Source of the DNA: Dehalococcoidia bacterium
GTDB taxonomy: Bacteria; Chloroflexota; Dehalococcoidia; Bin125
NCBI GenBank assembly: GCA_963662615.2
Contig: CAXXSR010000001.1
Location: 1,216,001-1,280,000 of the forward strand
Reading direction: 5' to 3'
DNA length: 64,000 bases
In this document: piece after piece, positions 23,236 through 55,843 of the stretch
How the letters are laid out: each line of letters begins with the position of its first letter
How positions within the stretch are numbered: the first letter of the stretch is position 1
The notes under the pieces: generated by a model
What the model was told of the DNA's origin: nothing
Database searches by the model: none
Seen by the model: only the letters and a program-made list of their open reading frames with translations
Made by a program: the position numbers and the translations under genes

Positions 23236-24573
23236 CTACCGTCCCCTAGGGTTGACGACGTCGTTGACCGCGTCGCCCACCAGATTGAAAGAGAAGATCA
23301 GCACCGCCACCGTGACGCCCGGCACCAGCAGGAGATGCGGGTGCAGGTTGAAGGTGCTAGAGCCGCCAGCGTCCGCGATCATGGCGCCGAAGGAGGCGGT
23401 GGGCGGCTGAATGCCGAGGCCGAGGAAGGTGAGCCCGACCTCCGCACCCGCCGCGGCCCCCAGCGACGCGCTCACGCCCATGATGATCCAGGGCAGCACG
23501 CCCGGCAGGAGATGGCGGACGAGGATCCGTGGCGTGCCTGCCCCAATGGACTCCGCCGCCAGAATGAACTCCTGTTCCCGCAAGGCGAGCACCTGCGCGC
23601 GCACGAAGCGCGCCGTCAGCACCCACCCCAAGAAGGAAACGGCGACAAATAACAGGCTGATGTGATCGATCCCCTGGTCAATGAGGAAGGTCATGCCGAG
23701 GAAGTCGTCGATGGCGGCGATCCAGTCGGTCCACTGTTCGCGCAAGACAGCGCTGATCACGATCAGAACGAGCAGGCCGGGAATGGCCAGGAAGACGTCA
23801 CCGACGCGCATGATCACGGCGTCAACCCAGCCGCCCCGATACCCCGCCCAAAGTCCCAGCCCCAAGCCAAGGAAGGCATCGCCGAGCAGAAAGGCGAGAA
23901 TGCTGAAGATCAGCGTGGTGCGGGCCGAGAAGAGGGTGCGGCTGAACATGTCGCGGCCGTTGCGGTCGGTGCCGAAGAGGTGGCGCGAGGAGGGCCCTTG
24001 CAGCGTTTCATCCTCGCTGACGACGAGTAAGGTGCCAGCGGGCAGAACCGTCTCCTCGCGGAGGGGACTGAAGCGATCGGAGGGGCCCGGAATCGTGAGG
24101 AGGGTGAGTTCCGGCAGAACGGTCTCCTCCGTGAGCGGGCCGAAGCGATCGGCCACGGTGGGATTGAGCGCCGCGATGACGTCCACCGTGATGCCGTGCC
24201 GGGTGAGGAATGACGCCAGCGGCTCCACTTCCGTGCCCGCGAGCCGGACGGTGTCGCTGGTGCGGCGATTGTTGGCGACGATCTCCTCCAGGGAGGCGTC
24301 GTGGTCCTGGAGGAACGCGCCGATCGTTTCGCCTTCGTCCACGCGGTCGCGCGCGGCGAGATTGTTCGTTGTCGGGTCCTGCAGCCCTGTGGGCGCCCCG
24401 AAGGCGTCCAGCATGGTGTACGACCCCGCCCCATAGATGATGCAGATGAGGATGAGCGAGATCACGGCGAGCCGCTTCCGCAGCAGGCTCCGCAGAGCGC
24501 GCCGCCAGGGCGCCTTCCCGCGCGCCTCGGCCAGAGCGATTTCGATGTCGCCGCTACCGCCGGCGACCGTCAC
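23236..24573 (-). CDS. oppC: Peptide ABC transporter permease OppC/DppC with about 115-aa LysM-like insert
   Basis: HLFGTDRNGRD, EAA loop EFILAAESIGA, RHLLP, FLGLG, FNLVGDA; longer than usual because of an insert at aa ~74-189. Confidence 0.9.
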   Translation of the reverse strand: MTVAGGSGDIEIALAEARGKAPWRRALRSLLRKRLAVISLILICIIYGAGSYTMLDAFGAPTGLQDPTTNNLAARDRVDEGETIGAFLQDHDASLEEIVANNRRTSDTVRLAGTEVEPLASFLTRHGITVDVIAALNPTVADRFGPLTEETVLPELTLLTIPGPSDRFSPLREETVLPAGTLLVVSEDETLQGPSSRHLFGTDRNGRDMFSRTLFSARTTLIFSILAFLLGDAFLGLGLGLWAGYRGGWVDAVIMRVGDVFLAIPGLLVLIVISAVLREQWTDWIAAIDDFLGMTFLIDQGIDHISLLFVAVSFLGWVLTARFVRAQVLALREQEFILAAESIGAGTPRILVRHLLPGVLPWIIMGVSASLGAAAGAEVGLTFLGLGIQPPTASFGAMIADAGGSSTFNLHPHLLLVPGVTVAVLIFSFNLVGDAVNDVVNPRGR

Positions 24574-33229: not shown

Positions 33230-35101
33230 ATGTACGTCATCGGCACGGCCGGGCACGTCGATCACGGCAAGAGCCGCCTGGTGCTGGCCCTGACCGGCAT
33301 CGACCCCGACCGCCTCCGCGAGGAGAAGGAGCGCGGCCTCACCATCGACCTTGGCTTCGCCTGGTTCGATCTCCCCAGCGGCCGCGAGGTCAGCATCGTC
33401 GACGTGCCCGGCCACGAACGCTTCATCAAGAACATGCTCGCCGGCGTGGGCGGGATCGATCTGGCGCTGTTCGTCGTGGCGGCGGACGAAGGCGTCATGC
33501 CCCAAACGCGCGAGCATCTGGCCATCCTCGACCTGCTGCAAGTCAGGCAGGGCGTGGTGGCGCTGACGAAGAGCGACTTGGTCGACGAGGACTGGCTGGA
33601 GCTCGTCACGGCCGACGTCGAGGAGCTGTTGACGGAGACGTCGTTGGTTGGCGCGCCCGTCGTACCATGCTCGGCCGTGAGCGGCGACGGCTTGGATGCG
33701 CTTCGCACCGCCCTCGACGGGGCGCTGGACGGGCTGCCCCCGGTGCGGGACGTCGGCCGCCCTCGACTACCGGTGGACCGTGTCTTCACCATCACCGGCT
33801 TCGGCACCGTCGTCACCGGCACCCTCATCGACGGCAGTCTGCACGTGAGCGATCAGGTGGCGATTGAGCCGGGAGGACGGTTGGCCCGCATCCGCGGTCT
33901 GCAAAACCACCAGAAGAAGGTGGAGGCGTCGCAACCCGGCACGCGCACCGCGATCAATTTGAGCGGCATCGCGCCGGAGGAGCTTGACCGCGGGGTGGTC
34001 GTGACCACGCCCGGCTGGCTCCAGCCGACGCGGGCAGTGGACGTGCGCCTGCGGGCACTCGCCTCGCTCCCGCGGTCAATCAAGCACAACGCTTCCGTCA
34101 CGGCCCACACGGGCGCCGCCGAGGTCCCGGCGCGGGTGCGCCTTCTTGAGGGCGAGGCGCTGGAGCCGGGCCATGAGGCCTGGGCGCAGCTGCGGCTCGA
34201 CCAGCCCGTGGCCGTCGCGCGCGGTGATTTCTTCGTCATTCGCAACAGCGTCACGACGATGGGCGGGGGCCGCGTCGTCGACACCCGGCCCCGCCGCCAC
34301 AAGCGCAATGAAGCGGAGACGCTGGCGGCGCTGGGCCGGCTGCTCGAGGGCAGCCCGGACGACACCGTTCTGACCGTGCTCCAGCGCCTGGAGCCGGCGT
34401 CCCTGGCCGACGTTCGACGCCGCGCGGAACTTGACGACCGGGTCGCGCGCGAGGCCGTCGAGCGCCAGGTCGATGAGGGCGCCATCGTCGTCTTGGACGA
34501 GGGCGGTCTGAGCGACGGCAGCGTGCTCACCACCGCCGCCGGCGTGGAGGGACTCGGCGCCAAAGCCGTGGCGTACACGTCGGAGTTCGTCAGCGAGCAT
34601 CCCCTCCGCAGGGGGATTGCCAAAGAAGAGCTGCGCAGCCGTCTGGGCCTCCCGGCGAAGGCCTTCAGCGCCTTGGAGCGCCGCCTGGTCGCCGAGGGAC
34701 GCCTGGCCGCCCACCAGGGCGCGCTGGACCTGCCCGACCGGCACGTCACCCTGACGGTGGAGCAGCAGAGCGCCGCGGACCAGCTCGTGGAGCGATTGAA
34801 GGCCGCCGGGCGCAGGCCGGAATCGACGGGCCGCGTCGACCCGGAGCTGGCGACCTACCTGGAAGCGCAAGGGTCAATCGTGCGGCTGGGGGACGGGGTC
34901 TATCTTGAAGCCGGCACGCGCGCCGCCATGGCGGATGACGTCGTGTCGGCCCTGCGCGAGCGCGAGAAGATCACGCTGGCGGAGGTCCGCGACCTTCTGG
35001 GCACGAGCCGCAAGATCGCCCAGGCCTTGCTGGAGGACCTGGACCAGCGCCGCGTCACCCGTCGCGTCGGCGACGCCCGCGTCCTGCGGGGCGCCGGCTA
35101 G
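33230..35101 (+). CDS. selB: Selenocysteine-specific elongation factor
   Basis: GTAGHVDHGKS, EEKERGLTIDLGF, DVPGHERF, C-terminal winged helices ending GTSRK..LEDLD..TRRVGDAR. Confidence 0.96.
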   Translation: MYVIGTAGHVDHGKSRLVLALTGIDPDRLREEKERGLTIDLGFAWFDLPSGREVSIVDVPGHERFIKNMLAGVGGIDLALFVVAADEGVMPQTREHLAILDLLQVRQGVVALTKSDLVDEDWLELVTADVEELLTETSLVGAPVVPCSAVSGDGLDALRTALDGALDGLPPVRDVGRPRLPVDRVFTITGFGTVVTGTLIDGSLHVSDQVAIEPGGRLARIRGLQNHQKKVEASQPGTRTAINLSGIAPEELDRGVVVTTPGWLQPTRAVDVRLRALASLPRSIKHNASVTAHTGAAEVPARVRLLEGEALEPGHEAWAQLRLDQPVAVARGDFFVIRNSVTTMGGGRVVDTRPRRHKRNEAETLAALGRLLEGSPDDTVLTVLQRLEPASLADVRRRAELDDRVAREAVERQVDEGAIVVLDEGGLSDGSVLTTAAGVEGLGAKAVAYTSEFVSEHPLRRGIAKEELRSRLGLPAKAFSALERRLVAEGRLAAHQGALDLPDRHVTLTVEQQSAADQLVERLKAAGRRPESTGRVDPELATYLEAQGSIVRLGDGVYLEAGTRAAMADDVVSALREREKITLAEVRDLLGTSRKIAQALLEDLDQRRVTRRVGDARVLRGAG

Positions 35102-36290
35102 GGCGCGACCCGGCCGGCTGCCGACGTCTGCCAAAGCGACGCTGGATGGACCCTTCCTCCCACAGCACGACGATCTGCGCGGCCACGGCGATGGACGAGT
35201 AGGTGCCGGCGATCGCGCCCACCAGCAGCACCAGGACGAGGGGCCGCACCGTCACGCCGCCAATCAGCATCAGCGCCACCAGCGCCAGGATCAGGGTGAT
35301 GGACGTGTTCAGCGAGCGCCCCAGCGACTGCGTGATCGCGGCGTTCACCGTGGGCCGCAGGCGGGAGCCGGGGTCTTGCAGCTGGTTCTCGCGGATGCGG
35401 TCGAATACCACGATGGTGTCGTTGACGCTGTAGCCGATGATCGCCAGCAGGCCCGTCACGAACATCGCGTTGACTTCCACCTCCGCCACCTGCCCCAGGA
35501 TCGAGAACACCCCCACGACGATAGTGATGTCGTGCAGCAGCGCGACGATGGCGGCCGCGCCGTACAGCAGCGGATTGGGCAGGCGCCGGAACGCCAGGCT
35601 GATGTAGATCAGGATCGCCACGGCCGCGATGCTCAAGGCGATGCCGGCGTCCTTCGCGATCTCGCTGCTCAGGATCCCAGACACTGTCGCCGACTGCAGC
35701 ACGAAAATCGGCCCGACCTCCGTCCGCAGGGCCTCGGCAATCTCCGGCCGCAGGGCCTCGGCAATCTCTGGCCGCAGCGCCTCCGAATCCCCGTCGTCTG
35801 GCACCTGGGCGCGCAGCTTGAACGTCGATTCGCCGGTCGCTTGAATGCGCGCATCCCCCAGGCCGATGCCGCGGAGGGCGTCGCGGACGTCGTCCTGCGA
35901 CACGTCGGCCGGGAACCAGACTTCCAGTTCAACGCCGTCCTCCCCAACGTCCGAGTCCACGGTCTGAATCTCCCCGACGTTCGCTTCAAGGGCCGCCTGC
36001 ACATCGTCCAACGGGGGGCCGGCGCCTTCCGCGTCAGGCTGGCCAACGCGCACCACGAAGGTCGCGTCCTCGGTCGCCTCCACGGCCACGTCGTCAAACC
36101 CGGCCCCGCGGACGGCGCCCGCGACGTCCTCTTCCGTCACGTCGTTGAGAAAGCGCGCCTCCAGCTCGATCCCGCCCTCGAAGTCGATGCCGGGATCGAG
36201 CTGCCAGATCGACAGCGCCACGAGGCAGGGCACGAGCAGCCCGAGCGAGATGAGAGCGAAATACCGCCGCAAGCCGACGAAGTTGATCAT
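35055..36290 (-). CDS. secF: Protein translocase subunit SecF with duplicated extracytoplasmic domain
   Basis: GIDFEGG, ALLHD, GYSVNDTIVVFDRIREN, RSLNTS, GTYSSI. Confidence 0.95.
   Translation of the reverse strand: MINFVGLRRYFALISLGLLVPCLVALSIWQLDPGIDFEGGIELEARFLNDVTEEDVAGAVRGAGFDDVAVEATEDATFVVRVGQPDAEGAGPPLDDVQAALEANVGEIQTVDSDVGEDGVELEVWFPADVSQDDVRDALRGIGLGDARIQATGESTFKLRAQVPDDGDSEALRPEIAEALRPEIAEALRTEVGPIFVLQSATVSGILSSEIAKDAGIALSIAAVAILIYISLAFRRLPNPLLYGAAAIVALLHDITIVVGVFSILGQVAEVEVNAMFVTGLLAIIGYSVNDTIVVFDRIRENQLQDPGSRLRPTVNAAITQSLGRSLNTSITLILALVALMLIGGVTVRPLVLVLLVGAIAGTYSSIAVAAQIVVLWEEGSIQRRFGRRRQPAGSRPSRRPAGRGRRRRDG
35724..35783 (-). repeat. 24-nt in-frame tandem repeat (2.5 copies) in secF
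   Basis: ccgcagggcctcggcaatctc(c/t)gg x2 plus a partial copy; encodes EALRPEIA repeats. Confidence 0.9.
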
Positions 36291-38035
36291 CGGTCGCCGC
36301 CTCTGGAACCGGCGGCCGGCTCCGCGCTCCGGCGCGGCCGCCCCGGGGTGGGCGCGTCGTCCTCCGGCATCTCGCGGATGCCGAAGAGCCAGGGCCTGCG
36401 GGCGAGACCGAGGCCCACGGTGAGATTGAGGAACGTGCGCGTCACGAAGATGGCGGTGACCATGCTGAACACGGTCCCCACGAAGAGAGCGATGGCGAAG
36501 GACTTGATCAAGTTGGCGTTGAGCTGGTCGGCAAAGAACCAGAGGATGCCCACCGTGATCAGGGTGGAGACGTTGGCGTCGCGAATGGCGGGCCAGGCGC
36601 GACTCCAGCCGACCTCAATGGCCCCCTGCAGCCCGCGGCCCAAGCGCAGCTCCTCCTTCATGCGCTCGAAAATGAGGATGTTGGCGTCGACCGCCAGCCC
36701 CACCGCGAGCACGAAGCCGGCGATCCCGGCCAGGGTCAGCGTGATGGGCACCAGCTTGAATGTGGCCATCACGACAGAGGCGTACACGATCAGCGCCAAC
36801 GCCGCCATCACCCCGGGCAGCCGGTAATAGAGGACCATGAACAGCGTGATGGCCAGATAGGCCACCAGTCCCGCCTGAACGGTGTCAATCACCGAGTCCT
36901 CGCCCAAGGTGGCGGCGACTTCCGTCTGCTGGATGGTCTGGAAGTTGATCGGCAGTGCCCCGGCGCGGAGTTGGCGGCGCAGAGTGCGCGCCTCCTGGTC
37001 GCTGATGCCGGTAATGATGCCCCGATCGCTGATCACCGCCTGCACCCGCGGCTGGCTGATCAGTAGGCGGTCCACGAAGATGCCCAGCGGGGCCTGATTC
37101 ACAGCGAGACGCTCCGTGAGCTGCTCAAACAGGCGCGCGCCCTCGCTGTCGAACTCGAACGAGAGCGCCGTCTGCCCGCTCTGGTCGATGGTGCGGGAAA
37201 TCGAGTCCGCGATGAGGAAGTCGCCCGTGAGCTGCACCTCCTCCCCCCGGCGGTCGCGGGCGCGGGCCGGAATCCAGCGAACGCCGTCAACCACGATGAC
37301 GTCCTCCGTGGCGTCCCCCAGCGGGAATTCGGCGAGACGCGGCGTCTCGGTATCCAGCGGCTCGATCAGCTGCGGATCGAAGGCGTCCTCCAGCGTCTGC
37401 TCAACGGCGAACGGATCAACGGGTGGCGGCACGAAGCGAAAGAACGGATCGATCTCGCGAAACTCCAGCAGGGCTGTGGAGCCCACCAGGTCGGCCGCTT
37501 CTTCCGCGGTGACGCCGGGGATCTGCGCGCTGATGCGAGTGTCGCCCACGGTCGTGACTTCCGCCTCCGACACGCCGAAGCCGCTCACGCGCTCCGCGAT
37601 GATGTCGCGCGCCTCGGCGATCGCCTCGTTCAAGTCCTCGCCTTCGATGTCCAGCGGCAGGACGAGGCTCTGAATGGTGTCTGGAAGCGGGCGGTCGATC
37701 TCCTCCGGACCCAAGTCCTCCAGCTCCGGGTTGAGATCCAGCAAAGTGGGGATGTCCACACGGTTGCGCTGTGCGAACGCCTCCAGGACCTCCCCGCGCC
37801 GCACCTGCGCCGACTTGCCGGAGGCCTCCAACGTGACGGAGACGCCGCCGGCCAGGTCCAAGCCCAGGCGGAACTCGTCCCGGTCGAAGTTGCCGATATT
37901 CAGTCCGCCGCCGCCGGGCCAGGGGATGAAATCGGGCAGGTACTTATCCGGGTTCCCCGGCCAGGTCACGAACATGCTGAAGCCCGTCACCACGAGGATG
38001 GCGAGCAGCGCGATCTGGTTCTTTCGTCTATGCAC
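36287..38035 (-). CDS. secD: Protein translocase subunit SecD with LysM-like insert
   Basis: LGLDLAGG, GVSE, AGALP, ATLG, AVDANILIFERMKEE, IRDAN. Confidence 0.95.
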   Translation of the reverse strand: MHRRKNQIALLAILVVTGFSMFVTWPGNPDKYLPDFIPWPGGGGLNIGNFDRDEFRLGLDLAGGVSVTLEASGKSAQVRRGEVLEAFAQRNRVDIPTLLDLNPELEDLGPEEIDRPLPDTIQSLVLPLDIEGEDLNEAIAEARDIIAERVSGFGVSEAEVTTVGDTRISAQIPGVTAEEAADLVGSTALLEFREIDPFFRFVPPPVDPFAVEQTLEDAFDPQLIEPLDTETPRLAEFPLGDATEDVIVVDGVRWIPARARDRRGEEVQLTGDFLIADSISRTIDQSGQTALSFEFDSEGARLFEQLTERLAVNQAPLGIFVDRLLISQPRVQAVISDRGIITGISDQEARTLRRQLRAGALPINFQTIQQTEVAATLGEDSVIDTVQAGLVAYLAITLFMVLYYRLPGVMAALALIVYASVVMATFKLVPITLTLAGIAGFVLAVGLAVDANILIFERMKEELRLGRGLQGAIEVGWSRAWPAIRDANVSTLITVGILWFFADQLNANLIKSFAIALFVGTVFSMVTAIFVTRTFLNLTVGLGLARRPWLFGIREMPEDDAPTPGRPRRSAEPAAGSRGGDR

Positions 38036-38175: not shown

Positions 38176-38625
38176 TCAGCGCCGACGGGCGGGCGACTCT
38201 TCGTCCGCTCCGCTGTCGCCGGCGTCGGAACCGACGCCGCCCGTACGCGCCTCGCCGTTCGCATCCCACTCCCGATCACCCTCACCCCCTGCCACGTCCT
38301 CCGGCCCAGCGTCGCTCGCATTCGTGCCCGCAGAACTCGGCGAAGGTGACCGCGGGGGCGGGAGCCGCTTCGCGATCGCATCGGGATGCGCTTTCACTAC
38401 CACTCCCTCCGCCAGTTCGAGATACAGGATCATGGGCCCGTCCGGTTGGGATTCCACGTCGGTCACGGTGGCAATCAGGCCACCGCTGGTCAGGACCTTG
38501 TCGCCAATTGAGAGCGCATTGAGGTCTCGCCGACGACGGCTTTGCTCCGCGCGCGCCGGGCGGACAAAAAAGATATAGAAGAGCACGACCAGCACGATGG
38601 CGATGCTCAGGACCTCGAACACCAT
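38176..38625 (-). CDS. yajC: Preprotein translocase subunit YajC with acidic C-terminal tail
   Basis: N-terminal TM, FFVRP, GDKVLTSGGLIATV; upstream of secDF; GGAGG RBS. Confidence 0.9.
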   Translation of the reverse strand: MVFEVLSIAIVLVVLFYIFFVRPARAEQSRRRRDLNALSIGDKVLTSGGLIATVTDVESQPDGPMILYLELAEGVVVKAHPDAIAKRLPPPRSPSPSSAGTNASDAGPEDVAGGEGDREWDANGEARTGGVGSDAGDSGADEESPARRR

Positions 38626-40885: not shown

Positions 40886-43648
40886 CTAGAGCAGGCTGAC
40901 GGGATCGATGTCGACCGTCCAGCCGCGGCCGAAGTCCACCGGGCGCAGCAGCGGCAAGGGATCCGCGCCGCGGAGCGTGATCTGCCAGCGATAGAGGCCG
41001 CGCCGTCGCGCGAGAAAGGCGGGCGTTGGGCCCAGGACCTCGGGGCCCAGCAGCCCCCGCCGGTCCCGATCCTCAAGCAGCGACGCCGCCATGTTGGCAG
41101 CCACGTCCCGCGCCCGGGCGGGCTTGCGATCGGCGTATACCAGCCGCGCCAGCCGTCCCAGCGGCGGATAGTCGTGGCGAGATCGCGCAGCGACCTCAGC
41201 CGCGTAGAACGCCTCGTAATCGTGCCCGGCAGCCGCCCTGATGGCGTAGTGCTCGGGTGCGTAGGTCTGCACCACCACCCGCCCGCCCTGCGGGCCGCGC
41301 CCCGCCCGGCCGGTGACCTGCGTGATCAGCTGGAAGGTCCGCTCCGGGCCGGTGTAATCCGGGAGGCGCAAGGATAGGTCCGCGTTGACCACGCCTACGA
41401 CCGTCACCGCCGGCAGATCGAGCCCCTTCGCGATCATCTGCGTCCCCACGAGGACGTTGGCGTCGCCGCGGATGAACTGCTCCAGCACCCGCCGGTGGCC
41501 GTCCTTGCCCGCCACGGTGTCGCGGTCCCAGCGCAGCGGCCGAGCCCGCGGAAACGTCTTGGCCACCTCTTCCTCCACCCGCTGCGTGCCAATGCCCATG
41601 GGCCGCACGCGGTCGCTGCCGCAGTGTGGACAGCGGCCCTCCGGCTGCGCCGTGCGGCCGCATTCGTGGCATCGCAAGATATCGCCCACACCCGGCGGCC
41701 CCGGCGCCAGACCCGGCAGCGCCCTGTGGTAGGTGAAGGGGATGGAACAGCGATCGCACCCGCGCGCCTCACCGCACGTGCGACAGACGAACGTCGCCAC
41801 GCCACGACGGTTGAGGAACAGGATCACCTGCTCATCGCGCTCCAGCGCCGTCGTCATCGCCGCCGCCAGCGGCTCGCTGAAGATCGAACGGTTTCCCCGC
41901 ACGAGCTCCTCACGCATGTCGACGATCTCGACACTCGGGAGGGCGGCCGTCTCCAACGGCGATGCCGGATCGGCGGGGTCGGTGCGACGGACGCGCTCGG
42001 GCAGCTCCAGGTAGCGATACTGCCCCGCCCTGGCCCGCGTCGCCGTGACCACGTCGGGGGTCGCGGAGCCCAAGACCGCCACCGCCCCGGTGAGGCGACA
42101 GTATTCCTCCACCACCTCCCGGACGCGATAGCGGGGCGCCGGATCGGTCTGCTTATACGTCCATTCGTGCTCCTCATCGACGATTATCAGAGCCAGATGC
42201 AACCCCCTCTCAGCGCCGCCGCCCGACCCCGGCAGCGGGTGGGGCGCGAAGAGCGCTGAGCGCGACCCGATCACGACGTCCGCGTCGCCGCTGCGAACGC
42301 GCTCCCATTGGTCGTGCAGCTCGCCCGCAGAGAGGCCCGAGTGCAGCACGGCGACGCGGCCGGGCAGACGAGCCAGGAAGCGGTCCACTGTCTGAGGCGT
42401 CAGGGCGATCTCCGGGACAAGAACGATCGCCCACCCGCCTTGATCACGAGCGTGCTCCACCGCCGCGAGATACACTTCGGTCTTGCCGCTTCCGGTGACG
42501 CCGTGCAGAAGAAAGATCGGGCCCTCCTTGCGGTGCTGCGGCCGCGTCTCCACGGCGCGGTCCAGCGCCTCGGCGATGGCTTCATAGGCCCGGCCCTGAT
42601 CCTCAGTGAGCGCCGGTGCCGCGACGATCGGGACGGCCCGCCCCGCCAGGGGATCGCGCGCCACGACGCGCGTCTGGCGCCGGACCAGGCCGTCGGCGAT
42701 CAGCGCGTCGACATCAGCGCCCGTGGCGTTGGCCTCCTGCCGCGCGGGCGCATCCGCGCGCGGCCCGGGAAGCAGCGCTTCCAGCAGCGCCACTTGGCGG
42801 CGCTCCGGGCCCGTCCGTCGCAGGCTCGCAATGGCGCTATCGACGGCGGCCGGGTCAACCGCGAGCCGCACGCAGTCGCCGTCGGGGACCATCAGGCGGC
42901 CCTGGCGCAGCCAGCGCTCCAGCGAGTCCCGCGCCCCGGCAAGGCGGCGGGCCTCATCACGGGGCGCCGCACCCACCTGCAAGCGCTCCAGCAGGTCGGC
43001 CTGGCGGGAGCGGCGGGAACGCGGCCAGGCGGCGATGGCGGCGCGGGCCGTTCCCTCCTCGATCGCCAGCGAGAGCAGCGTCTCCGTCTTCGGGCCCACG
43101 GTCGGCCGGCTCAGAGCGTAGCGCTCTTCCACCAGCCCTTTTTTGACGAGGCTCCGAACGGTGGGAGCAATGGCGCCGTCCTTGAGGGCCGCCTGCAGCG
43201 CGTCGGCCTCCACGGAGCGCCGCGCCGTGATGGCGTCCAGCACCGTGCGCTCCCGTTCGCTCAGATGTTGTAGCGCGGAGGCATCACTCAGTGGGGCCGG
43301 GCGCAGCAGCCGCTCGGGCTTCCGCTCGAAACCGGGGGGCAAGAACAGTGCCGCGGCAGCAAACGCCGGCGCCAGGTAGGCGTCGCCAATCCAGCGCACC
43401 AGCGCAGTCTGCTCAGGCCCCAGGAGCCGCTCTTCGCCAAGGAGTGCGAGGATCGGGCGCGGCGCGGCGACGGCCGGGCTCTCCGTCAGCGCCAGCACGA
43501 TGCCCTGGAGCACCTGCCTGCCGAACGGCACGAAGACGCCGTCGCCCACCCGCACAGCCAAGAGGGGCGGGATCGCGTAGGTGAACGTGCCGCGCTGAGG
43601 CCGGCCCGAGTTCACCGCAACTTCGACATACCGCGGAGCCGCCGGCAT
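40886..43648 (-). CDS. priA: Primosomal protein N'
   Basis: GVTGSGKTEVY, VPEIALTPQ, DEEHE, four CxxC pairs, GTQMIAKGLD, GRAGR. Confidence 0.96.
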   Translation of the reverse strand: MPAAPRYVEVAVNSGRPQRGTFTYAIPPLLAVRVGDGVFVPFGRQVLQGIVLALTESPAVAAPRPILALLGEERLLGPEQTALVRWIGDAYLAPAFAAAALFLPPGFERKPERLLRPAPLSDASALQHLSERERTVLDAITARRSVEADALQAALKDGAIAPTVRSLVKKGLVEERYALSRPTVGPKTETLLSLAIEEGTARAAIAAWPRSRRSRQADLLERLQVGAAPRDEARRLAGARDSLERWLRQGRLMVPDGDCVRLAVDPAAVDSAIASLRRTGPERRQVALLEALLPGPRADAPARQEANATGADVDALIADGLVRRQTRVVARDPLAGRAVPIVAAPALTEDQGRAYEAIAEALDRAVETRPQHRKEGPIFLLHGVTGSGKTEVYLAAVEHARDQGGWAIVLVPEIALTPQTVDRFLARLPGRVAVLHSGLSAGELHDQWERVRSGDADVVIGSRSALFAPHPLPGSGGGAERGLHLALIIVDEEHEWTYKQTDPAPRYRVREVVEEYCRLTGAVAVLGSATPDVVTATRARAGQYRYLELPERVRRTDPADPASPLETAALPSVEIVDMREELVRGNRSIFSEPLAAAMTTALERDEQVILFLNRRGVATFVCRTCGEARGCDRCSIPFTYHRALPGLAPGPPGVGDILRCHECGRTAQPEGRCPHCGSDRVRPMGIGTQRVEEEVAKTFPRARPLRWDRDTVAGKDGHRRVLEQFIRGDANVLVGTQMIAKGLDLPAVTVVGVVNADLSLRLPDYTGPERTFQLITQVTGRAGRGPQGGRVVVQTYAPEHYAIRAAAGHDYEAFYAAEVAARSRHDYPPLGRLARLVYADRKPARARDVAANMAASLLEDRDRRGLLGPEVLGPTPAFLARRRGLYRWQITLRGADPLPLLRPVDFGRGWTVDIDPVSLL

Positions 43649-43666
43649 GTCACCACTCCCTCTCGC

Positions 43667-43707
43667 CACGCCCCGCGACACACGCCCCGCGACGCACGCC
43701 CCGGCCG
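43667..43707. repeat. 14-nt tandem repeat (about 3 copies) upstream of priA
   Basis: cacgccccgcgaca / cacgccccgcgacg / cacgccccggccg. Confidence 0.8.
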
Positions 43708-43830
43708 CGCTTCCGCTTTGGCTTGAGTGTACGGAGATCCCGCCGGCCCCCAGACGGTGCGCGACAGAAGGAGGAGAGGCGCCGCGGTTCAGCGGCATTC
43801 GCCTCGCGTAGTCAAGACAGGAATCCCGCG

Positions 43831-47681: not shown

Positions 47682-49679
47682 ATGATCCGGGCCGGCCTGA
47701 GCCCCTGGCGCATGCGCGTAATCACGATAGTGCTCGTGGCCTTCGGCACCCTCCTCATCCTGCGGCTGGTGCAGGTCCAGATCTTGGAGCATCCCCGCTT
47801 CGAGCAGGAAGCCCGCGACATCCATTTTTGGACCCAGGAGATCCGCGGCCCTCGCGGCGCGATCCTCGACCGCAACGGCTTCCCTCTCGTCACCGGCATC
47901 GACACCTTCGAGATCCACGTCGATCGCGACGCCTGGGAACTAGAAGGCGGCAACGAGCGTCTCGCCGTAGAGAAGCTCTCGCACCGCCTGGGCGCCTCGC
48001 AAGAGCAGATCCGGGCGATCGTCGACTCCGGCGGCGGTCGCGACGTCCTGCTGGCGCTGAACGTCCCGTACGGCCTGGGCGAGGCCATCATCGCGGAGGG
48101 CCTGCCAGGCGTGAAGGTGACTTCCGCAAGCCTAAGACGCTATGGCGAAGGCGCCTTGGCCAGCCAGATTCTCGGCTTTGTGGGCCGGGACAACGTGGGC
48201 CTGGCCGGCGTGGAGTTCAACTTCGACTCCGTCCTCAGTGGGAAGCCCGGCCGCCTCGTCTACGAACGCGACAGTCTGGGCAACCCCATCCCCTTCGGCG
48301 CGCGGGGGATGGAGCCCGTGCAGCCGGGCGCCGACCTCGTCCTCACCATCGATCGCACGCTGCAGCGTATCGCGGAGGAGCACCTCGCCGCCGCCCTGGA
48401 GAAGACCGGCGCTCGCGGCGGCGCCATCCTGATGATGGAGCCGCACACAGGCGACATTCTCGCCATCGCCTCCTCTCCCTCGTTTGACGTCACGAACCCG
48501 AACCTGGGCGATCCGGCCCTGGACCTCTCCCTCTTCCGCAATCGCACCGTCACGGACGTGTATGAACCCGGATCGGTGTTCAAGGTCGTGACGATGGCAG
48601 CCGCCATCGACGCTGGCGTGGTCACACCGGACACCACCTTCGTGGACACCGGCGCCATCGTCGTCGGCGCCAGCACCATCCGAAATTTCGACCTCTCCTT
48701 CCACGGCCGCCAGACCATGACGCAGGTCCTGCAACGATCGCTGAACACGGGCGCCGCCTGGGTCACGCAGCAGTTAGGCGCCGATCTCTTCTACTGGTAT
48801 CTGCGGCAGTTCGGCTTCAACAAGTCAACCAACTCCGGCTTCGCCGGGGAGGCGAGCGGGATCGTCAAAGAGCCCGGGAACCTGTTCTGGTCGCCGGTGG
48901 ACCTGGCGACGAACTCCTATGGCCAGGGGATCTCTGTGACCCCTCTCCAAATCGTGCGGGCCATGGCGGTGATCGCGAACGGCGGCGACCTGGTCCGGCC
49001 ACGCATCGTCCGGGCGGTGATCACGCAAGAGGGGGTCCGGGCGGTGCCCACGGTGATCGAGGGCCGGGCTATCCGCGAGGACACTGCCGCGCAGCTGCGT
49101 GTGATGATGCAGGCTGTCGTGGACGGCGTGGCCGGGCATCCCGCCCAGACGCCCGGCTGGCCGGTGGCCGGCAAATCCGGCACGTCCGATGTGGCGGAGG
49201 ACGGCGCGTACCTGGAAGGGGAGTCGATCGCCTCCTTCACGGGCTTCGCCCCCGCCGACGATCCTCGCGTGGTCGTCCTGGTGAAGCTGGACCGGCCACA
49301 GGGCGAGATCTTCGGTGGAATTATCGCCGCGCCGGTCTTCTCCGCCGTGCTCCGTGACGCGCTCCCCTACTTGGGCGTGCCGCCGTCGGCGTATGTGGCG
49401 GAGCCGAGCCTGTTCGAGCCCGTCCCGGAAGAGACCGGGAGCGCCGACGACGCGGCCGCGCCCACCGACGCGGCGGGCGCGGCGCCGGACGCCGATGCCG
49501 GTGAGGCCGACGCCGGGGAGGCGGACGCCGCCGTCGAACCGGTCGCCGAGAGCGAAGCCGCCGGCACGCCCATCGACGCCCTCGAAGACGCCCCCGCTCT
49601 CGATCTCCAGCTCGCCGAGCCGATCGACGCCGCAACTGTGGAGGACACGGCGCCGATCGAGAGTGCAGGGACTCAATGA
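47682..49679 (+). CDS. ftsI: Class B penicillin-binding protein (FtsI-like) with acidic C-terminal tail
   Basis: RGAILDRNG, YEPGSVFK (SxxK), SLN (SxN), KSGT. Confidence 0.93.
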   Translation: MIRAGLSPWRMRVITIVLVAFGTLLILRLVQVQILEHPRFEQEARDIHFWTQEIRGPRGAILDRNGFPLVTGIDTFEIHVDRDAWELEGGNERLAVEKLSHRLGASQEQIRAIVDSGGGRDVLLALNVPYGLGEAIIAEGLPGVKVTSASLRRYGEGALASQILGFVGRDNVGLAGVEFNFDSVLSGKPGRLVYERDSLGNPIPFGARGMEPVQPGADLVLTIDRTLQRIAEEHLAAALEKTGARGGAILMMEPHTGDILAIASSPSFDVTNPNLGDPALDLSLFRNRTVTDVYEPGSVFKVVTMAAAIDAGVVTPDTTFVDTGAIVVGASTIRNFDLSFHGRQTMTQVLQRSLNTGAAWVTQQLGADLFYWYLRQFGFNKSTNSGFAGEASGIVKEPGNLFWSPVDLATNSYGQGISVTPLQIVRAMAVIANGGDLVRPRIVRAVITQEGVRAVPTVIEGRAIREDTAAQLRVMMQAVVDGVAGHPAQTPGWPVAGKSGTSDVAEDGAYLEGESIASFTGFAPADDPRVVVLVKLDRPQGEIFGGIIAAPVFSAVLRDALPYLGVPPSAYVAEPSLFEPVPEETGSADDAAAPTDAAGAAPDADAGEADAGEADAAVEPVAESEAAGTPIDALEDAPALDLQLAEPIDAATVEDTAPIESAGTQ

Positions 49680-51043
49680 TCAGCCCGCGCGCCCTGGCAC
49701 TGGCGCTCAACGGTCTCCTCAAGAATCCGTGCGCCGATCTCTCCGCCGCGCCCTACAACGACATCGTCATGGACTCCCGCAAGGTCAAGCCTGGCGACCT
49801 GTTCGTGGCCCTGCGCGGCGAACACACCGACGGGCACAAGTTCCTGGACGACGCCGTCCAGCGCGGTGCCACCGGGCTGCTGACGCGCGCCGCCCCCCCG
49901 ACCTTGCCTGCGTCCGTCACGGCCTTCCTGGTGTACGACACCTTGCAGGCCCTGCAAGAGGCCGCCAGGCAATGGCGTGCGACCCTTCCTGCCAAGGTCG
50001 TGGGGATCACCGGCAGCGTGGGCAAGACAACCGTGCGCGAGGCCCTCAGCCAGGTGCTCCGCCGTCGCTATGCCACCTTTGAAAGTCCACGCAACTTCAA
50101 CAGTGAGATCGGCCTGCCGCTGGCGCTGCTGGGCTTGAGTCCCCAGCATGAATGGGCCGTCGTGGAACTCGGTCCCTACGACCTCCAGGAGATGCAGCTG
50201 CTCTGCGACATCGCCCGGCCGGATGTCGGTGTCGTCACCAACGTCGGGCCCACACATCTGGAGCGGTACGGATCGCTGGACGCCATTGAAGAGGCGAAGG
50301 GCACGTTGCCCGCGTCGCTGGGGCCAAACGGGCTCGCCGTGCTCAATGCCGACGACGAGCGGACGCTGCGTATGCGCCGCCGTACCCAGGCGCGGGTGCT
50401 CACGTTCGGGCTGGGCCGGGACGCGGACGTGCGCGCCGACGACGTGCAGGCACACGGCCTGGACGGACTGACCTTCACCCTCCACGTGCACAAAGAGGCC
50501 GTCGCCGTGCGCACGCCGCTCGCCGGCGCGCACCACGTGATCACCGCGCTGGCGGCGGCGACCGTCGCAGCGGGCGCCGGCTTCAACGCCACCGAGATCG
50601 CGGAGGCGCTGGCGACGCTCCGTGCGGGGAGTCGGCTGAAGCCGCGCCGCTCCTTCTCCGGCGCCCTCATCTTGGACGACACCTATAACGCCGCGCCCGT
50701 CTCCATGAAGGCCGCGCTCGATTTCCTGGCGCAGATCCCAGGGCGCCGCGTCGCCGTGCTGGGCGACATGCTGGAGCTGGGTAGCGAGGAAGAGGCCGGT
50801 CACCGCGAGGTGGGCGCCTACGCCGTGGGCCGTTGCGACCGCATCGTCGCCGTGGGCGAGCGGGCGCGCACCATCGCCAACGGCGCCTGGGACGCCGGCC
50901 ACACCCAAATTCAGTGGTTCCAGGACAAGGAGAGCGCCACCGCCACTCTGCTTCAGGAGGTCGGCGCGGACGATGTCGTCCTCATCAAAGCATCGCACGG
51001 TCTCGCCTTGGAGACGGTGGTGGAAGCGCTGGTGAATCCATGA
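49676..51043 (+). CDS. murF: UDP-MurNAc-tripeptide--D-Ala-D-Ala ligase
   Basis: DSR, ITGSVGKTT, NFNSEIGLP, DDTYNA, LGDMLELG, KASHG. Confidence 0.95.
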   Translation: MISPRALALALNGLLKNPCADLSAAPYNDIVMDSRKVKPGDLFVALRGEHTDGHKFLDDAVQRGATGLLTRAAPPTLPASVTAFLVYDTLQALQEAARQWRATLPAKVVGITGSVGKTTVREALSQVLRRRYATFESPRNFNSEIGLPLALLGLSPQHEWAVVELGPYDLQEMQLLCDIARPDVGVVTNVGPTHLERYGSLDAIEEAKGTLPASLGPNGLAVLNADDERTLRMRRRTQARVLTFGLGRDADVRADDVQAHGLDGLTFTLHVHKEAVAVRTPLAGAHHVITALAAATVAAGAGFNATEIAEALATLRAGSRLKPRRSFSGALILDDTYNAAPVSMKAALDFLAQIPGRRVAVLGDMLELGSEEEAGHREVGAYAVGRCDRIVAVGERARTIANGAWDAGHTQIQWFQDKESATATLLQEVGADDVVLIKASHGLALETVVEALVNP

Positions 51044-52002
51044 CGGCCTTCTCCCTCACCACCGCCGGCTTGGCCTTTCTGCTGGCGCTGGCTATTGGGC
51101 GGCCGCTCATCATCTGGCTGCGTGCGCGTGACATGGGCAAAGCCATCAGTGACGAAGGGCCGGCGACGCATCATCGCAAGGCCGGCACGCCCACCATGGG
51201 CGGCCTCATGATCTTCGTCGTCGTCGCCATCCTGACCCTGGCCACCAACGTGGTTGGACGAGAATCGATCCTGCTGCCGCTAGCTGGAATCGTCGTGCTG
51301 GGCGGGATCGGCGCGCTGGACGACCTGGGCAGCATCGTGGGGCGCGCCCCCGGGGGGCTCAGTTGGCGGCTGAAGGTGGTCCTGCTGCTGCTCTTCGCGC
51401 TGGGGGCGGCGCTGGTCCTGTATTTCGCGCTGGATGTCAAGAGCGTCAACGTGCCCTGGGCCGGCCGGTTCTCCTTGGGTCCCGGCTACATCGTCATCGC
51501 GGTCGTCACCATCTTCGCCACGACCGTCTCCGTCGCCATCTCTGACGGCCTCGACACGCTGGCGGGCGGCACCGTGGCTATCGCCTTCGCTGCCTTCGGC
51601 GTCATCGCGGTCGGGCAGGAGCAGGACTTCTTGGTACGGTTCTGCTTCACGACGGTCGGCGCCGTCCTGGGCTTCCTCTGGTACAACGCGCATCCGGCGC
51701 AGCTCTTCATGGGCGACATGGGCGCGCTGGCGCTCGGCGGCACGCTCGGCATCGTTGCGCTGATGACGGGACACTGGCTGCTGCTGCCCGTGATCGGCAT
51801 CGTCTTCCTGATCGAGGCGCTGAGTGACGTCATTCAAGTCGGCTATTTCAAGCTCTCGGGTGGCAAGCGGGTGTTCCGCATGGCGCCCATTCACAACCAC
51901 TTCGAGCTGATCGGTTGGTCGGAGCCTCAGGTGGTCACCCGATTTTGGCTGCTGGGCATTGCGGGCGCGATCGTGGGCGTGGCCTTGGCGCTGCAGGTCT
52001 AG
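51040..52002 (+). CDS. mraY: Phospho-MurNAc-pentapeptide transferase
   Basis: KAGTPTMGG, DGLD, FMGD, MAPIHNHFE. Confidence 0.96.
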   Translation: MTAFSLTTAGLAFLLALAIGRPLIIWLRARDMGKAISDEGPATHHRKAGTPTMGGLMIFVVVAILTLATNVVGRESILLPLAGIVVLGGIGALDDLGSIVGRAPGGLSWRLKVVLLLLFALGAALVLYFALDVKSVNVPWAGRFSLGPGYIVIAVVTIFATTVSVAISDGLDTLAGGTVAIAFAAFGVIAVGQEQDFLVRFCFTTVGAVLGFLWYNAHPAQLFMGDMGALALGGTLGIVALMTGHWLLLPVIGIVFLIEALSDVIQVGYFKLSGGKRVFRMAPIHNHFELIGWSEPQVVTRFWLLGIAGAIVGVALALQV

Positions 52003-52028
52003 CGGGTTCGCGGAGGTGAAGAGCCGTG

Positions 52029-53480
52029 ATGAGCGCACCGTCCACCAAACATGAACCGCGGTCGTTCCGCGGGCTCCGCGCCGGCGTCGTGGGGCTGGGC
52101 CTAGAGGGGCAGGACATCGTGCGCTTCCTGCATCGGGAGGGCGCCACCGAGATCGTGGTCTCGGACCGGAAACCGGCGGACGCGCTGCAAAGCCAAGTCC
52201 AGGCCCTGGCCGGCATCCCCTTCGTCCTGGAGGCCGGCGGCAACGACACGAGCCTGGCCGAGCGTGTCGATGTGCTCTTCGTGAGTCAGGGCGTCCCCGC
52301 GAATCTGCCGCTGCTGCAGGAGGCGCAAGCGCGCGCCCTCCCCGTGACCGCGATGATGCGGCTGTTCCTCCAACGCTGTCCCGCGCCCGTGACGGGCATC
52401 ACGGGGAGCGCCGGTAAGACGACCACGACCGCGCTAGTGGGCGAGATTCTTCGCGCCGCCGGCACTCCGGTGTTTGTGGGCGGCAACATTGGCGTGGGCC
52501 TGCTCGAAGCGCTGCCGCAGATCACAGCGAAGATGACCGTCGTCGTGGAGATCAGTCACACACAGCTGGCGCGCACGGACCGCAGTCCCCACGTGGCCGC
52601 CGTGCTCAACGTGACGCCCAACCACCTTGACCAGTTCCGCTGGGATGCCTACGTGGACCTCAAGCGGAATCTCGTGCGGTACCAAACCACCGACGACATC
52701 GTGGTGCTCCCCATCGACAACGAGACGGCATACGCGCTCGGGGCCGACACGCCTGCGCGGCCGTACTTCTTCGGACTGGAGGCGCTGCCGGGGCCGGGCG
52801 CCACCGTCCGCGACGGCGCCATTGTCTGGGAGCCGGCCGGGGGCGGCGGCGGCTCCCAGAACGTGCTGCCGATCGCTGCCGTGCAACTGCCGGGCGAACA
52901 CAACCTGCGCAACATCCTGGCGGCTGTGGCGATTTGCGGCGCCGGGGGCGCTCCGCCGCAGGCGATGGCCGCCGCGATCGCCGGATTCACGGGCGTTCCC
53001 CATCGCCTCCAAACCGTGGCGGTGGCCGCCGGCGTGCGCTTCGTGGACGACTCCATCGCTACGGCGCCGGAGCGCACCGTGGCCGCCCTCCGCGCGATCG
53101 CGGGGCCAATCGTGCTGCTGCTCGGGGGGCGTGAGAAGCGCCTGCCGCTGCAGCCGCTGGCGCGCGAGGCGCTAGGCACGGTCCGAACGGTCATCTGCTT
53201 CGGCGAGGCCGGCCCTGGCTTCGCCGCATTCCTGCGTGGGGAATGGTCCGGTCGCGCCGACGCGCCGTCGATCCGAGAAACCTCCGACCTGCCCGAGGCC
53301 GTTGAGGTGGCCCGCCGTGCGTCCCAGCCGGGCGATGCCGTCCTCCTCTCGCCGGCCGCCACCTCGTTCGACGCCTATGAGAATTTCGTCGCACGCGGCG
53401 ACCATTTTGCGGCGCTGGTGGCAGCCCTGCCGTCCGCTCGCAGCGGCGCCAGACGGGAGGCCGATGATGGCCCGCGCTGA
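52029..53480 (+). CDS. murD: UDP-MurNAc-L-Ala--D-Glu ligase
   Basis: ITGSAGKTTTT, GGNIG, PNHLD, HRL, DDSIAT, LSPAATSFD. Confidence 0.94.
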   Translation: MSAPSTKHEPRSFRGLRAGVVGLGLEGQDIVRFLHREGATEIVVSDRKPADALQSQVQALAGIPFVLEAGGNDTSLAERVDVLFVSQGVPANLPLLQEAQARALPVTAMMRLFLQRCPAPVTGITGSAGKTTTTALVGEILRAAGTPVFVGGNIGVGLLEALPQITAKMTVVVEISHTQLARTDRSPHVAAVLNVTPNHLDQFRWDAYVDLKRNLVRYQTTDDIVVLPIDNETAYALGADTPARPYFFGLEALPGPGATVRDGAIVWEPAGGGGGSQNVLPIAAVQLPGEHNLRNILAAVAICGAGGAPPQAMAAAIAGFTGVPHRLQTVAVAAGVRFVDDSIATAPERTVAALRAIAGPIVLLLGGREKRLPLQPLAREALGTVRTVICFGEAGPGFAAFLRGEWSGRADAPSIRETSDLPEAVEVARRASQPGDAVLLSPAATSFDAYENFVARGDHFAALVAALPSARSGARREADDGPR

Positions 53481-54708
53481 CGTCCTGAGCGTCCCCATCA
53501 TTGGCCGGCGGCGTGAAGAGACGGGCCGACACATCGCCGGCGCGCCCGACTGGCCCCTGATCGCCACGGCTGTCGCGTTGACGCTTCTCGGCCTGATCTT
53601 CGTCTTCAGCTCCTCGTTCGCCGTCGGCGAGCGCCTCCACGGCGACCCGCACCACTTCGCCATCCGGCAGCTCGCCGGCGCCGGGCTGGGCCTTCTGGCG
53701 TTCGTCTTCTTCGCCTCGATCGACTATCGGCGGCTGCGCGCTTGGAGCCCGCTGCTGATGGCGCTGGCCATCCTGGGGTTGCTGGCGGTGCTCGTGCCCG
53801 GCATTGGCGTGGAGCAGAACGGCGCGCGACGCTGGGTGACCGTGGTGGGCTCGCTCCCGCCGGTGCAGCCGTCGGAGTTCGCCAAACTGGCGATCGTGAT
53901 CTACGTGGCCGCCTGGCTGGCCTCGCGGGGCGACGCGATTCGTCACGTCACCCTTGTCGTGGTGCCGTTTTCCATCGTCGTCGGGCTGGTCGGTTTTCTC
54001 ATCATGGCGGAGCCGGATCTGGGCACCGCAATCATGATCTCTCTTCTCGCCGGCGCCATGTTCTTTGTGGCCGGCGCCGCCCTGCGGCACATCTTCGTGC
54101 TGACCGTGCTGGGCGGAAGCGTGCTGTTTGGCATCATTGCCATCTTCGGTTACGGGCTGAACCGCTTCACCCAGTTCATCTCGGCGGAATCCAACCCGGA
54201 AGCGGGCGGCTTCCAAATCCTGCAGCTGCTCATCGCCCTGGGCAGCGGTGGCTTGAGCGGCGTCGGACTGGGCGAGAGCCGGCAGAAGTTCTTCTACGTT
54301 CCCTCCGCCCACACCGACGGCGTCTTCGCCATCATCGGCGAAGAGATCGGCTTCGTCGGCGCCGTGCTCGTCCTTCTCCTGTTTGCGTTCTTTGCCTACC
54401 GCGGCATTCGCACCGCGCAGCGCGCCCCCGACACCTTCGGCGCCCTCCTAGCCACTGGCGTCGTCTGTTGGATCAGCTTGCAGGCGTTCCTCAACATCGG
54501 CGGGATCACCCGCACCATTCCGCTGACCGGCATCCCCTTGCCGTTCGTGTCGTTTGGTGGTTCCGCTCTCGTCGCCACACTCGCGGCGACGGGCCTGTTA
54601 GTCAGCGTCTCTCGCTTCGCTCTACAGGAGGAGCCAAAGGAAAAGAAGCCGCAACAGCGCAAGCGCGACTACGTAGAGCAAGCGCCTCAATGGGAGGAAG
54701 CGGATTGA
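53464..54708 (+). CDS. ftsW: SEDS peptidoglycan polymerase FtsW
   Basis: NGARRW, QPSEFAK, EPDLGT, HTD, GEEIG, TGIPLPFVSFGGS. Confidence 0.95.
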   Translation: MMARADVLSVPIIGRRREETGRHIAGAPDWPLIATAVALTLLGLIFVFSSSFAVGERLHGDPHHFAIRQLAGAGLGLLAFVFFASIDYRRLRAWSPLLMALAILGLLAVLVPGIGVEQNGARRWVTVVGSLPPVQPSEFAKLAIVIYVAAWLASRGDAIRHVTLVVVPFSIVVGLVGFLIMAEPDLGTAIMISLLAGAMFFVAGAALRHIFVLTVLGGSVLFGIIAIFGYGLNRFTQFISAESNPEAGGFQILQLLIALGSGGLSGVGLGESRQKFFYVPSAHTDGVFAIIGEEIGFVGAVLVLLLFAFFAYRGIRTAQRAPDTFGALLATGVVCWISLQAFLNIGGITRTIPLTGIPLPFVSFGGSALVATLAATGLLVSVSRFALQEEPKEKKPQQRKRDYVEQAPQWEEAD

Positions 54709-54751
54709 TGGGCGGCGTCTGTCGGGGTGTGCAGGCTGCGGAGGGCCTGGA

Positions 54752-55843
54752 ATGAGGCTCCTCTTGGGCGGCGGCGGGAGCGGCGGGCACGTCTTTCCTG
54801 CGCTGGCGGTTGCCAGCGCGCTCAAGGAAGGGATCTCGGAGAGCTTGGATCTGCTGTTCGTGGGAACCGACACCGGCATGGAGGCCGGCTTGGCGCGCGA
54901 GGCCGGCGTGCCCTACCGCGCGGTGGCATCGCGCCCCCTGCGCGGCCGCCTTCCCTTCAGTCAGGCGTGGTCCGCTTTGACCATCGTCGCAGGCGTGTGG
55001 GAGGCGCTTCGCATCACGCGCCGGTTCCGGCCCAACGTCATCTTCGTGACCGGCGGTCACGTCAGCGTGCCCATCGGCATCGCCGCGGCGCTGACACGGC
55101 GGCCCCTCGTCCTCTTCCAGCCCGACGTCGATCCGGGCTGGGCGACCCGCTTGCTGGTCCCCATCGCCACGCGCGTCTGCGCGACCGACGCCGGCTCCCT
55201 CAGGCGGCTGCCCGCGCGCAAATCCGTGGCCACCGGCTATCCCTTGCGCCCCATCTTCTACGATCTTGACCGGCCCATGGCCCGGGCGCGCTTCCAGCTG
55301 AACGGCAGCCCGGCCATCCTCGTGGCCGGCGCCGTCCAGGGGGCGCGCCGCATCAACGACGCAATTGACCGCGACCTGGAGCGCTGGCTCGCCCTCGCCC
55401 AGATCCTGCACGTGACTGGACCTCTCGATGCGCGGCGGATGAACGAGCGCCGCGAGGCCCTGCCGGCGGCCCTGCAGCATCGCTATCAGGTCTATGAGTA
55501 CTTGGGCGATGACTTGCCTGTGGCGATGGCCGCGTGCGACCTGGCGGTGTCCCGAGCGGGCGCCTCCGTACTGGGCGAGTACCCCGCCGCGAAGCTGCCG
55601 GCCATCTTGGTGCCGCTCCCGAGCGCCGGCGCCCACCAGCGCGACAACGCCGCGGTCTTGGAACGGGCCGGCGCGGCCTTGATCGTGGAGGACACAGAGC
55701 TGCCCCAGCGGCTCCTGTCCACGGCCACCGCGCTGCTCGCAGATCGCGCCGGTCTCGAGAAGATGCGTGACAACGCCGCCGCGATCGCGCACCCGGACGC
55801 CGCGCGCCGGATCGCCCAAGTGCTGTGGGAGGTCCGGCGATGA
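54752..55843 (+). CDS. murG: Lipid II GlcNAc transferase
   Basis: GGGSGGHVFP, TGGHVS, SRAGAS, HQRDNA. Confidence 0.95.
   Translation: MRLLLGGGGSGGHVFPALAVASALKEGISESLDLLFVGTDTGMEAGLAREAGVPYRAVASRPLRGRLPFSQAWSALTIVAGVWEALRITRRFRPNVIFVTGGHVSVPIGIAAALTRRPLVLFQPDVDPGWATRLLVPIATRVCATDAGSLRRLPARKSVATGYPLRPIFYDLDRPMARARFQLNGSPAILVAGAVQGARRINDAIDRDLERWLALAQILHVTGPLDARRMNERREALPAALQHRYQVYEYLGDDLPVAMAACDLAVSRAGASVLGEYPAAKLPAILVPLPSAGAHQRDNAAVLERAGAALIVEDTELPQRLLSTATALLADRAGLEKMRDNAAAIAHPDAARRIAQVLWEVRR

Follow-up and report, generated by a model that had tools for sequence, protein, structure and literature searches.

In a stretch of 64,000 nucleotides from a Dehalococcoidia bacterium (contig CAXXSR010000001.1, positions 1,216,001 to 1,280,000; referred to below as the window), the secD gene encodes a SecD protein that carries a LysM-derived domain in a surface loop of its P1 base, and our analyses show that this domain is kept across the bacterial family to which the genome belongs. 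SecDF pulls exported proteins from the SecYEG channel by means of a mobile outer domain. To our knowledge, the relation of SecDF to the overlying wall has barely been studied, especially in single-membrane bacteria. The original prediction, made from the sequence letters, was that a LysM-like module is inserted into the extracytoplasmic domain of SecD, and profile, fold and reciprocal-search evidence now bears this out. Based on the present data, we conclude that the insert is very probably a true but diverged LysM homologue, and not a canonical member of the Pfam family.

The host gene is an open reading frame (ORF) of 582 amino acids with a GTG start at 36287..38035 on the minus strand. It was identified as SecD by the equivalog model TIGR01129 (319.5 bits, cut-off 244.4), of which positions 1-397 of 397, and hence the whole model, are covered by residues 57-536. 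The Pfam domains SecD_1st (residues 140-196), SecDF_P1_head (267-363) and SecD_SecF_C (364-536) follow each other in this order, and Sec_GG matches residues 55-72 with 17.8 bits, under its cut-off of 20.3. The succession of GG motif, P1 base, P1 head and six-helix domain, together with the adjacent secF and yajC genes, is that of a SecD protein, and a phmmer search of the Protein Data Bank (PDB) matched the Thermus thermophilus SecDF structure 3AQP at E 1e-45.

Read on the minus strand, positions 37652-37813 give SAQVRRGEVLEAFAQRNRVDIPTLLDLNPELEDLGPEEIDRPLPDTIQSLVLPL, that is residues 75-128, in exact agreement with the residues quoted in the original prediction; LGLDLAGGVSVTLEA precedes them and DIEGEDLNEAIAEARDIIAERVSGFGVSE comes after. 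A plus-strand reading of the same positions was rejected, as it gives an unrelated frame. In T. thermophilus SecDF, IVLEADVENPTLDD runs directly into a helix with no extra module, and the HMMER alignment pairs LVLPLDIEGEDLNEAIAEARDII of the window protein with IVLEADVENPTLDD-LEKARTVL of 3AQP. From this alignment the extra piece comprises residues 72-128 (about 57 residues, SGKSAQVRRGEVL...SLVLPL; 37652..37822, minus strand), slightly more than was first claimed, and lies between the base strand VSVTLEA on one side and DIEGEDL with the first P1-base helix on the other. As a control for the length of this linker, we used 80 other SecD loci from Chloroflexota, Patescibacteria, cyanobacteria and others, which were recruited by conserved membrane-domain patterns and, among the matches listed, are at most 42% identical to the window SecD and lack the insert. 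The start of LGLDLAGG and RVSGFGVSE are 92 residues apart in the window SecD, whereas the corresponding spacing from the GG motif to RVNxxGVxE is 34-42 residues in 51 of the 54 control loci that have both motifs, which agrees with the earlier statement that SecD normally has a short linker here. The three other control loci, all Chloroflexota or Dehalococcoidia SecD proteins (L013, L037 and L039), have loops of 125, 103 and 227 residues, and their inserts bear no apparent resemblance to LysM; insertions seem to accumulate preferentially in this loop of SecD.

The relation of the insert to LysM was established with two alignments, A1 of 21 SecD homologues and A2 of the insert only from 20 family members. 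Among 177,635 PDB sequences, the top match of the A2 profile was 1E0G, the LysM of Escherichia coli MltD (E 7.1e-5, 26.1 bits), with pvRrGEsLnqFleRegveldellelN aligned opposite RVRKGDSLSSIAKRHGVNIKDVMRWN. The second match was the LysM protein 8RHE (E 0.0011), and 4UZ2 was reached at E 0.87; the matches between these two are designed helical repeats and one hydrolase (E 0.016-0.11). In a library of 1.84 billion representative proteins the same profile found 465 matches at E<=0.001. When ten of the top library matches were analyzed with Pfam, all nine that are not SecD proteins contained 4-10 PF01476 stretches, the tenth being an N-terminal fragment of SecD; the very low E-values in this library, down to 8.5e-33, are due to summing over repeats. 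The profile of the insert is thus significantly related to solved or curated LysMs, namely 1E0G, 8RHE and these multi-LysM proteins. The single sequence of the window SecD aligns to PF01476 with residues 77-105 (profile positions 2-29 of 43), with a score of 12.8 bits for full-length SecD, 16.5 bits (E 0.0083) for an excerpt of 86 amino acids and 16.6 bits in a scan of the genome. The protein that had served as the reference for the LysM pattern, a 207-amino-acid exported protein at 7700..8323 on the plus strand, is indeed a clear LysM protein with two canonical domains (PF01476, 90.2 bits, 2 stretches). A look-up of SecD residues 68-135 in the ESM Atlas returned no usable match.

The predicted fold points in the same direction. 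AlphaFold2 modelled the insert on A2 with a mean pLDDT of 81.1 and in the order beta-alpha-alpha-beta, the elements being a strand (insert positions 7-10), two helices (17-23 and 28-34), short helices at 36-40 and 43-46, and a second strand (56-59). These elements persist in a model of full-length SecD (mean pLDDT 71.9) as strands at residues 75-77 and 123-125 and helices at 84-90, 95-101 and 110-114, with pLDDT values of 77-85 across residues 71-130. The insert is thus predicted to have the LysM fold, albeit in about 57 residues, compared with 43-50 in PMC4083421. In a Foldseek comparison of the insert model with the PDB, the ten best matches were all chains of LysM-bearing proteins, with probabilities of up to 0.99. 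They include Bacillus subtilis YkuD/Ldt, which we take to carry a LysM, Pseudomonas aeruginosa MltD, a Volvox chitinase LysM and the LysM region of intimin. Lower matches comprise T. thermophilus NlpC/P60 LysMs, CEBiP, Ecp6, CERK1-type receptors and chain CJ of trypanosome mitoribosomes. Normalized to chains that consist of a LysM only, the TM-scores were 0.65-0.72. Of the checks proposed along with the original prediction, the fold model and the Foldseek comparison pointed to LysM, and PF01476 was matched below its cut-off.

The insert was found in the genome of the window and in all 25 other sampled genomes of the same family, out of a survey of 401 genomes of the class. The 375 genomes outside the family gave no firm match to the insert, just three marginal ones (E about 0.009; L107-L109) at loci that lack the SecD motifs. 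A search with SecD residues 40-200 yielded 158 homologues at E<=0.001. Among the 120 of these that were listed, nearly all are 557-594 amino acids long, and all those with the GG motif have the insert; the named ones are labelled as SecD of Chloroflexota or Dehalococcoidia, plus one fragment labelled Acidobacteriota. Two of the 120 have a longer loop between helix 1 and helix 2, and one has a shorter tail. Eight, of 639-656 amino acids, have two tandem modules at the same insertion site (P0052, P0058, P0062, P0093, P0102, P0109, P0112 and P0119); this duplication was recognized by reading the sequences, and the first copy has a longer helix 1-helix 2 region. Among the 150 library matches listed for the insert profile, the SecD membrane core was present in P0108 only. 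Therefore, these 150 show no combination of SecD and LysM outside the family, though a canonical LysM fused to SecD could occur elsewhere. A search of the window's genome revealed no paralogue of the SecD outer domain besides secD itself.

Conservation within the insert is concentrated in the strand 1-helix 1 loop (VRRGEVL, residues 78-84; 37784..37804, minus strand), which is its best-conserved stretch and is equivalent to the xVxxGD(T/S)L of LysM. This loop aligns to RVRKGDSL of 1E0G. The first 16 or so residues of the LysM pattern take the form V-R-R-G-E-(S/V)-L-x-x-F, whose G, E and L do not vary in any of the 20 sequences; relative to GD(T/S)L, the insert has E in place of D, and the window copy also has V in place of S. 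In A1, conservation reaches 90% or more at V78, R79, G81, E82 and L84, and positions R12, G14, E15 and L17 are invariant in A2. Overall, the invariant or near-invariant features of the insert are VR(R)GE(S)L, R90, N102, P116 and P127. The last two of these residues are invariant in A1, and an invariant P-L-P is found in the extended helix 2-strand 2 loop (PELEDLGPEEIDRPLPDTIQ, residues 103-122; 37670..37729, minus strand), which also contains extra short helices. From N102 to P127 the SecD insert counts 25 residues, whereas LNP-type LysMs from this genome count about 17, and the short helix 2-strand 2 loop that characterizes LysM is thus lacking. According to PMC4083421, the glycan site of the LysM of Enterococcus faecalis AtlA consists of the strand 1-helix 1 loop with the start of helix 1, plus the helix 2-strand 2 loop. 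By sequence and model, the first wall of this groove appears to be kept in the SecD insert and the second to be remodelled.

A module of the same long-loop subtype is present in a second membrane protein of the window, an OppC-like ABC permease of 445 amino acids (23236..24573, minus strand) encoded 13 kb from secD. Pfam recognizes only BPD_transp_1 and OppC_N in this protein and no LysM. Its outer loop (residues 60-200 approximately; 23974..24396, minus strand) reads ...VDEGETIGAFLQDH...VRLAGTEVEPLASFLTRHGITVDVIAALNPTVADRFGPLTEETVLPELTLLTIP... and contains the LysM-like modules; the tail of this loop is partly repeated (DRFGPLTEETVLPELTLLTIP / DRFSPLREETVLPAGTLLVVS). The permease was matched by the A2 hidden Markov model (HMM) at E 1.9e-4 and by an HMM of the combined modules at E 2.9e-17, and the latter detected only SecD, the OppC-like permease and canonical LysM proteins in the window's genome. 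When the SecD insert was compared by hhalign with A3, a profile of the OppC-like outer loop from 15 family genomes, the probability was 96.1% (E 3.6e-9) over 53 columns, the long loop included. The loop sequence of the window permease matches 50 of 60 other genomes of the family at E<=0.001, and in the class search an OppC-like ORF of 398-499 amino acids was found about 12 kb from secD in nine genomes.

The genome encodes the machinery for a peptidoglycan wall. It contains five transpeptidase-domain and six Mur-ligase matches, several of them inside the window, and 24 canonical LysM matches over the cut-off, which indicates that the cell makes peptidoglycan and uses LysM proteins. In the window, a cluster of division and cell-wall genes extends over approximately 48420..56720 on the plus strand, in which positions 48420-49352 (approximately) encode a penicillin-binding protein (PBP) transpeptidase domain, and positions 50006-50569, 52398-52934 and 56164-56718 (approximately) encode Mur-ligase domains. 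In acidity, the canonical LysMs of the genome resemble the SecD insert (median pI 4.3 and 4.4, respectively), and 19 of these 24 LysMs are also net negative; acidic charge was therefore dropped as an argument against wall binding. The best non-self match of the insert HMM in the genome is a 908-amino-acid ORF outside the window (G000:C1:465883-468606, minus strand) whose numerous LysM repeats include several of the 'LNP' type, and it is possible that this ORF was the source of the SecD module.

These observations suggest how the module might work. It would face the wall side of the membrane, where its canonical strand 1-helix 1 sugar-contact loop, if functional, could bind, as weakly as a lone LysM, the GlcNAc-X-GlcNAc backbone in the peptidoglycan that the cell itself makes. 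During movements of the P1 head, the fixed base of SecDF would in this way be held or positioned against the wall; alternatively, it might concentrate the export machine where the wall is exposed or under synthesis. Wall tethering is supported by the finding that the strand 1-helix 1 loop is the best-conserved part of the insert, and by the ability of the cell to make peptidoglycan. The module of this subtype in the nearby OppC-like permease suggests that the lineage may employ it more generally to attach membrane transporters to the wall. We regard the whole of this mechanism, in which the module binds the wall and thereby tethers or positions SecDF and likewise the permease, as a reasonable proposal that stops just short of being probable.

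Several observations weigh against the reading of the insert as a LysM-derived wall anchor, and some of them concern its ancestry. The insert remains under the gathering cut-off of PF01476 (16.5 versus 20.9 bits), and only 7 of the 21 homologues in A1 reach this profile at E<=10, the best at E 0.0082 and none over the cut-off. The E-values of Foldseek are by themselves not significant (best 0.028, none <=0.001), owing to the small size of the domain. In addition, evolution is faster in the insert than elsewhere in SecD, with a mean pairwise identity of 46.5% versus 66.8% over 136 pairs. Accordingly, one might propose that the stretch is a lineage-specific expansion of the linker, functionless in itself and similar to LysM only by accident, and the sub-threshold Pfam score, the place of the insert among the less conserved parts of SecD and the unrelated insertions at the same loop in 3 of 54 other SecD loci would fit such a proposal. 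However, three independent lines, the PDB profile match, Foldseek and the library search, lead to LysM; AlphaFold2 predicts a compact fold with confidence; all 25 sampled family genomes retain the insert, which has invariant positions; and some relatives have a tandem duplication of it. We therefore disfavour a chance resemblance and consider it very improbable.

The further points against the wall anchor concern sugar binding. The helix 2-strand 2 loop, which would form the second wall of the groove, is about 8-11 residues longer than in LysM and has extra helical turns. The permease adds to these doubts: A3 alone reaches 1E0G in the PDB only at rank 4 with E 0.9, so that the link of the OppC-like loop to LysM runs only via the SecD insert; moreover, the strand 1-helix 1 loop is longer by 4-5 residues in most OppC-like copies, and the trait common to the SecD and OppC-like modules need not be sugar binding. 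As described in PMC4083421, the contributions of modules to binding add up, so that one LysM alone is a weak binder. The module could thus be derived from LysM but blind to sugar, and serve for docking to a protein or for bracing, for instance by engaging a putative lineage-specific partner that SecDF would share with the Opp-type permease, or by acting as a strut within the P1 base. It would then be understandable that the second groove wall has given way to a longer loop in which P-L-P and L-P motifs are invariant, that the residues common to the SecD and OppC-like modules (E-L-x-x-F-x-x-R, LNP, PL, LP and the long loop) belong mostly to the core and the new loop and not to the strand 1-helix 1 loop, and that the PF01476 score is under threshold. 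Nevertheless, a pure strut would not need the VRRGE(S)L loop, where the SecD insert is conserved most strongly, and the module subtype was found by the combined HMM in only two proteins of the genome besides the canonical LysM proteins. In our view this sugar-independent role is a serious possibility, although an unlikely one.

Another possibility is that the module binds a different GlcNAc-containing ligand, such as nascent uncross-linked strands, lipid-linked precursors, released muropeptides or another surface polysaccharide. LysM recognizes GlcNAc-X-GlcNAc in several polymers, as stated in PMC4083421, and the altered second loop could shift specificity. Muropeptides would also fit a role in the recycling of wall fragments, given the same subtype on an Opp-type permease, and the division and cell-wall gene cluster lies within the same window. 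Still, nothing separates such ligands from plain wall binding and the idea is pure inference, which makes it, to our mind, improbable. The broadest form of the wall-binding view, namely that one monoderm Chloroflexota family evolved a long-loop LysM-derived 'wall hook' which was copied into SecD and an Opp-type permease, at least two unrelated machines, and which in some relatives occurs in tandem, coupling transporters to peptidoglycan, is offered here tentatively and is rather unlikely to hold in full.

The genes next to secD are arranged as a yajC-secD-secF row. Directly upstream of secD and in the same orientation lies yajC (38176..38625, minus strand; PF02699, 56.2 bits), and downstream lies secF (35055..36290, minus strand; PF02355, 168.4 bits), which overlaps the secD stop. 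With 411 amino acids SecF is long, and its outer domain seems to contain two similar units (ARFLNDVTEEDVAGAVRGAGFDDVAVEATEDATFVVRV / VWFPADVSQDDVRDALRGIGLGDARIQATGESTFKLRA) as well as a short tandem repeat, PEIAEAL(R). Elsewhere on the minus strand of the window, a 970-amino-acid ORF (40886..43798) has helicase-like motifs and a four-cysteine cluster. By eye it resembles PriA, for which family it would be long.

If the wall contact is real, the presence of a wall-binding domain in SecD's fixed base would amount to direct genetic evidence that the translocon touches the wall, and a small module that can be isolated from SecD would provide a simple handle on this contact. That a peptide permease has this module as well suggests a more general rule for the lineage, and a coupling of transporters to peptidoglycan, if true, would represent an undescribed way of organizing the cell envelope. 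The long-loop LysM subtype is missed by architecture catalogues that are based on Pfam: a precomputed PF01476 match was present in 0 of the 120 SecD homologues listed. We found no description of a LysM inside SecD in the titles and abstracts of the literature, a coverage to which subscription journals do not belong. Within these searches, in which none of the 120 listed homologues had a precomputed PF01476 match and no paper described the architecture, the earlier claim of novelty stands.

Compared with known systems, the insert is closest to LysM itself (PF01476/CBM50; E. coli MltD 1E0G, P. aeruginosa MltD 8RHE and E. faecalis AtlA), with which it has in common the beta-alpha-alpha-beta fold and the extracytoplasmic location. 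The first two thirds align residue by residue, VRRGESLnqFleRegv...LN of the insert corresponding to RVRKGDSLSSIAKRHGV...WN of 1E0G. It differs in being a single module nested in a polytopic membrane protein instead of a terminal repeat of a hydrolase of the wall, in its helix 2-strand 2 loop, which is longer by about 8-11 residues, and in its sub-threshold Pfam score; sugar binding is putative here. Canonical SecD and SecDF proteins (TIGR01129; T. thermophilus 3AQP/5YHF and Deinococcus radiodurans 5XAM) share with the window SecD the full core and the yajC-secD-secF row, but the window SecD has some 57 extra residues after the second base strand and before the first base helix. Finally, membrane-anchored periplasmic LysM proteins, such as intimin (2MPW), B. 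subtilis YkuD/Ldt (4A1I) and MltD, likewise place a LysM near the membrane and were among the best Foldseek matches. In these proteins, however, the LysM contacts the wall as a separate terminal domain of an enzyme or adhesin, whereas the SecD module is an internal insertion.

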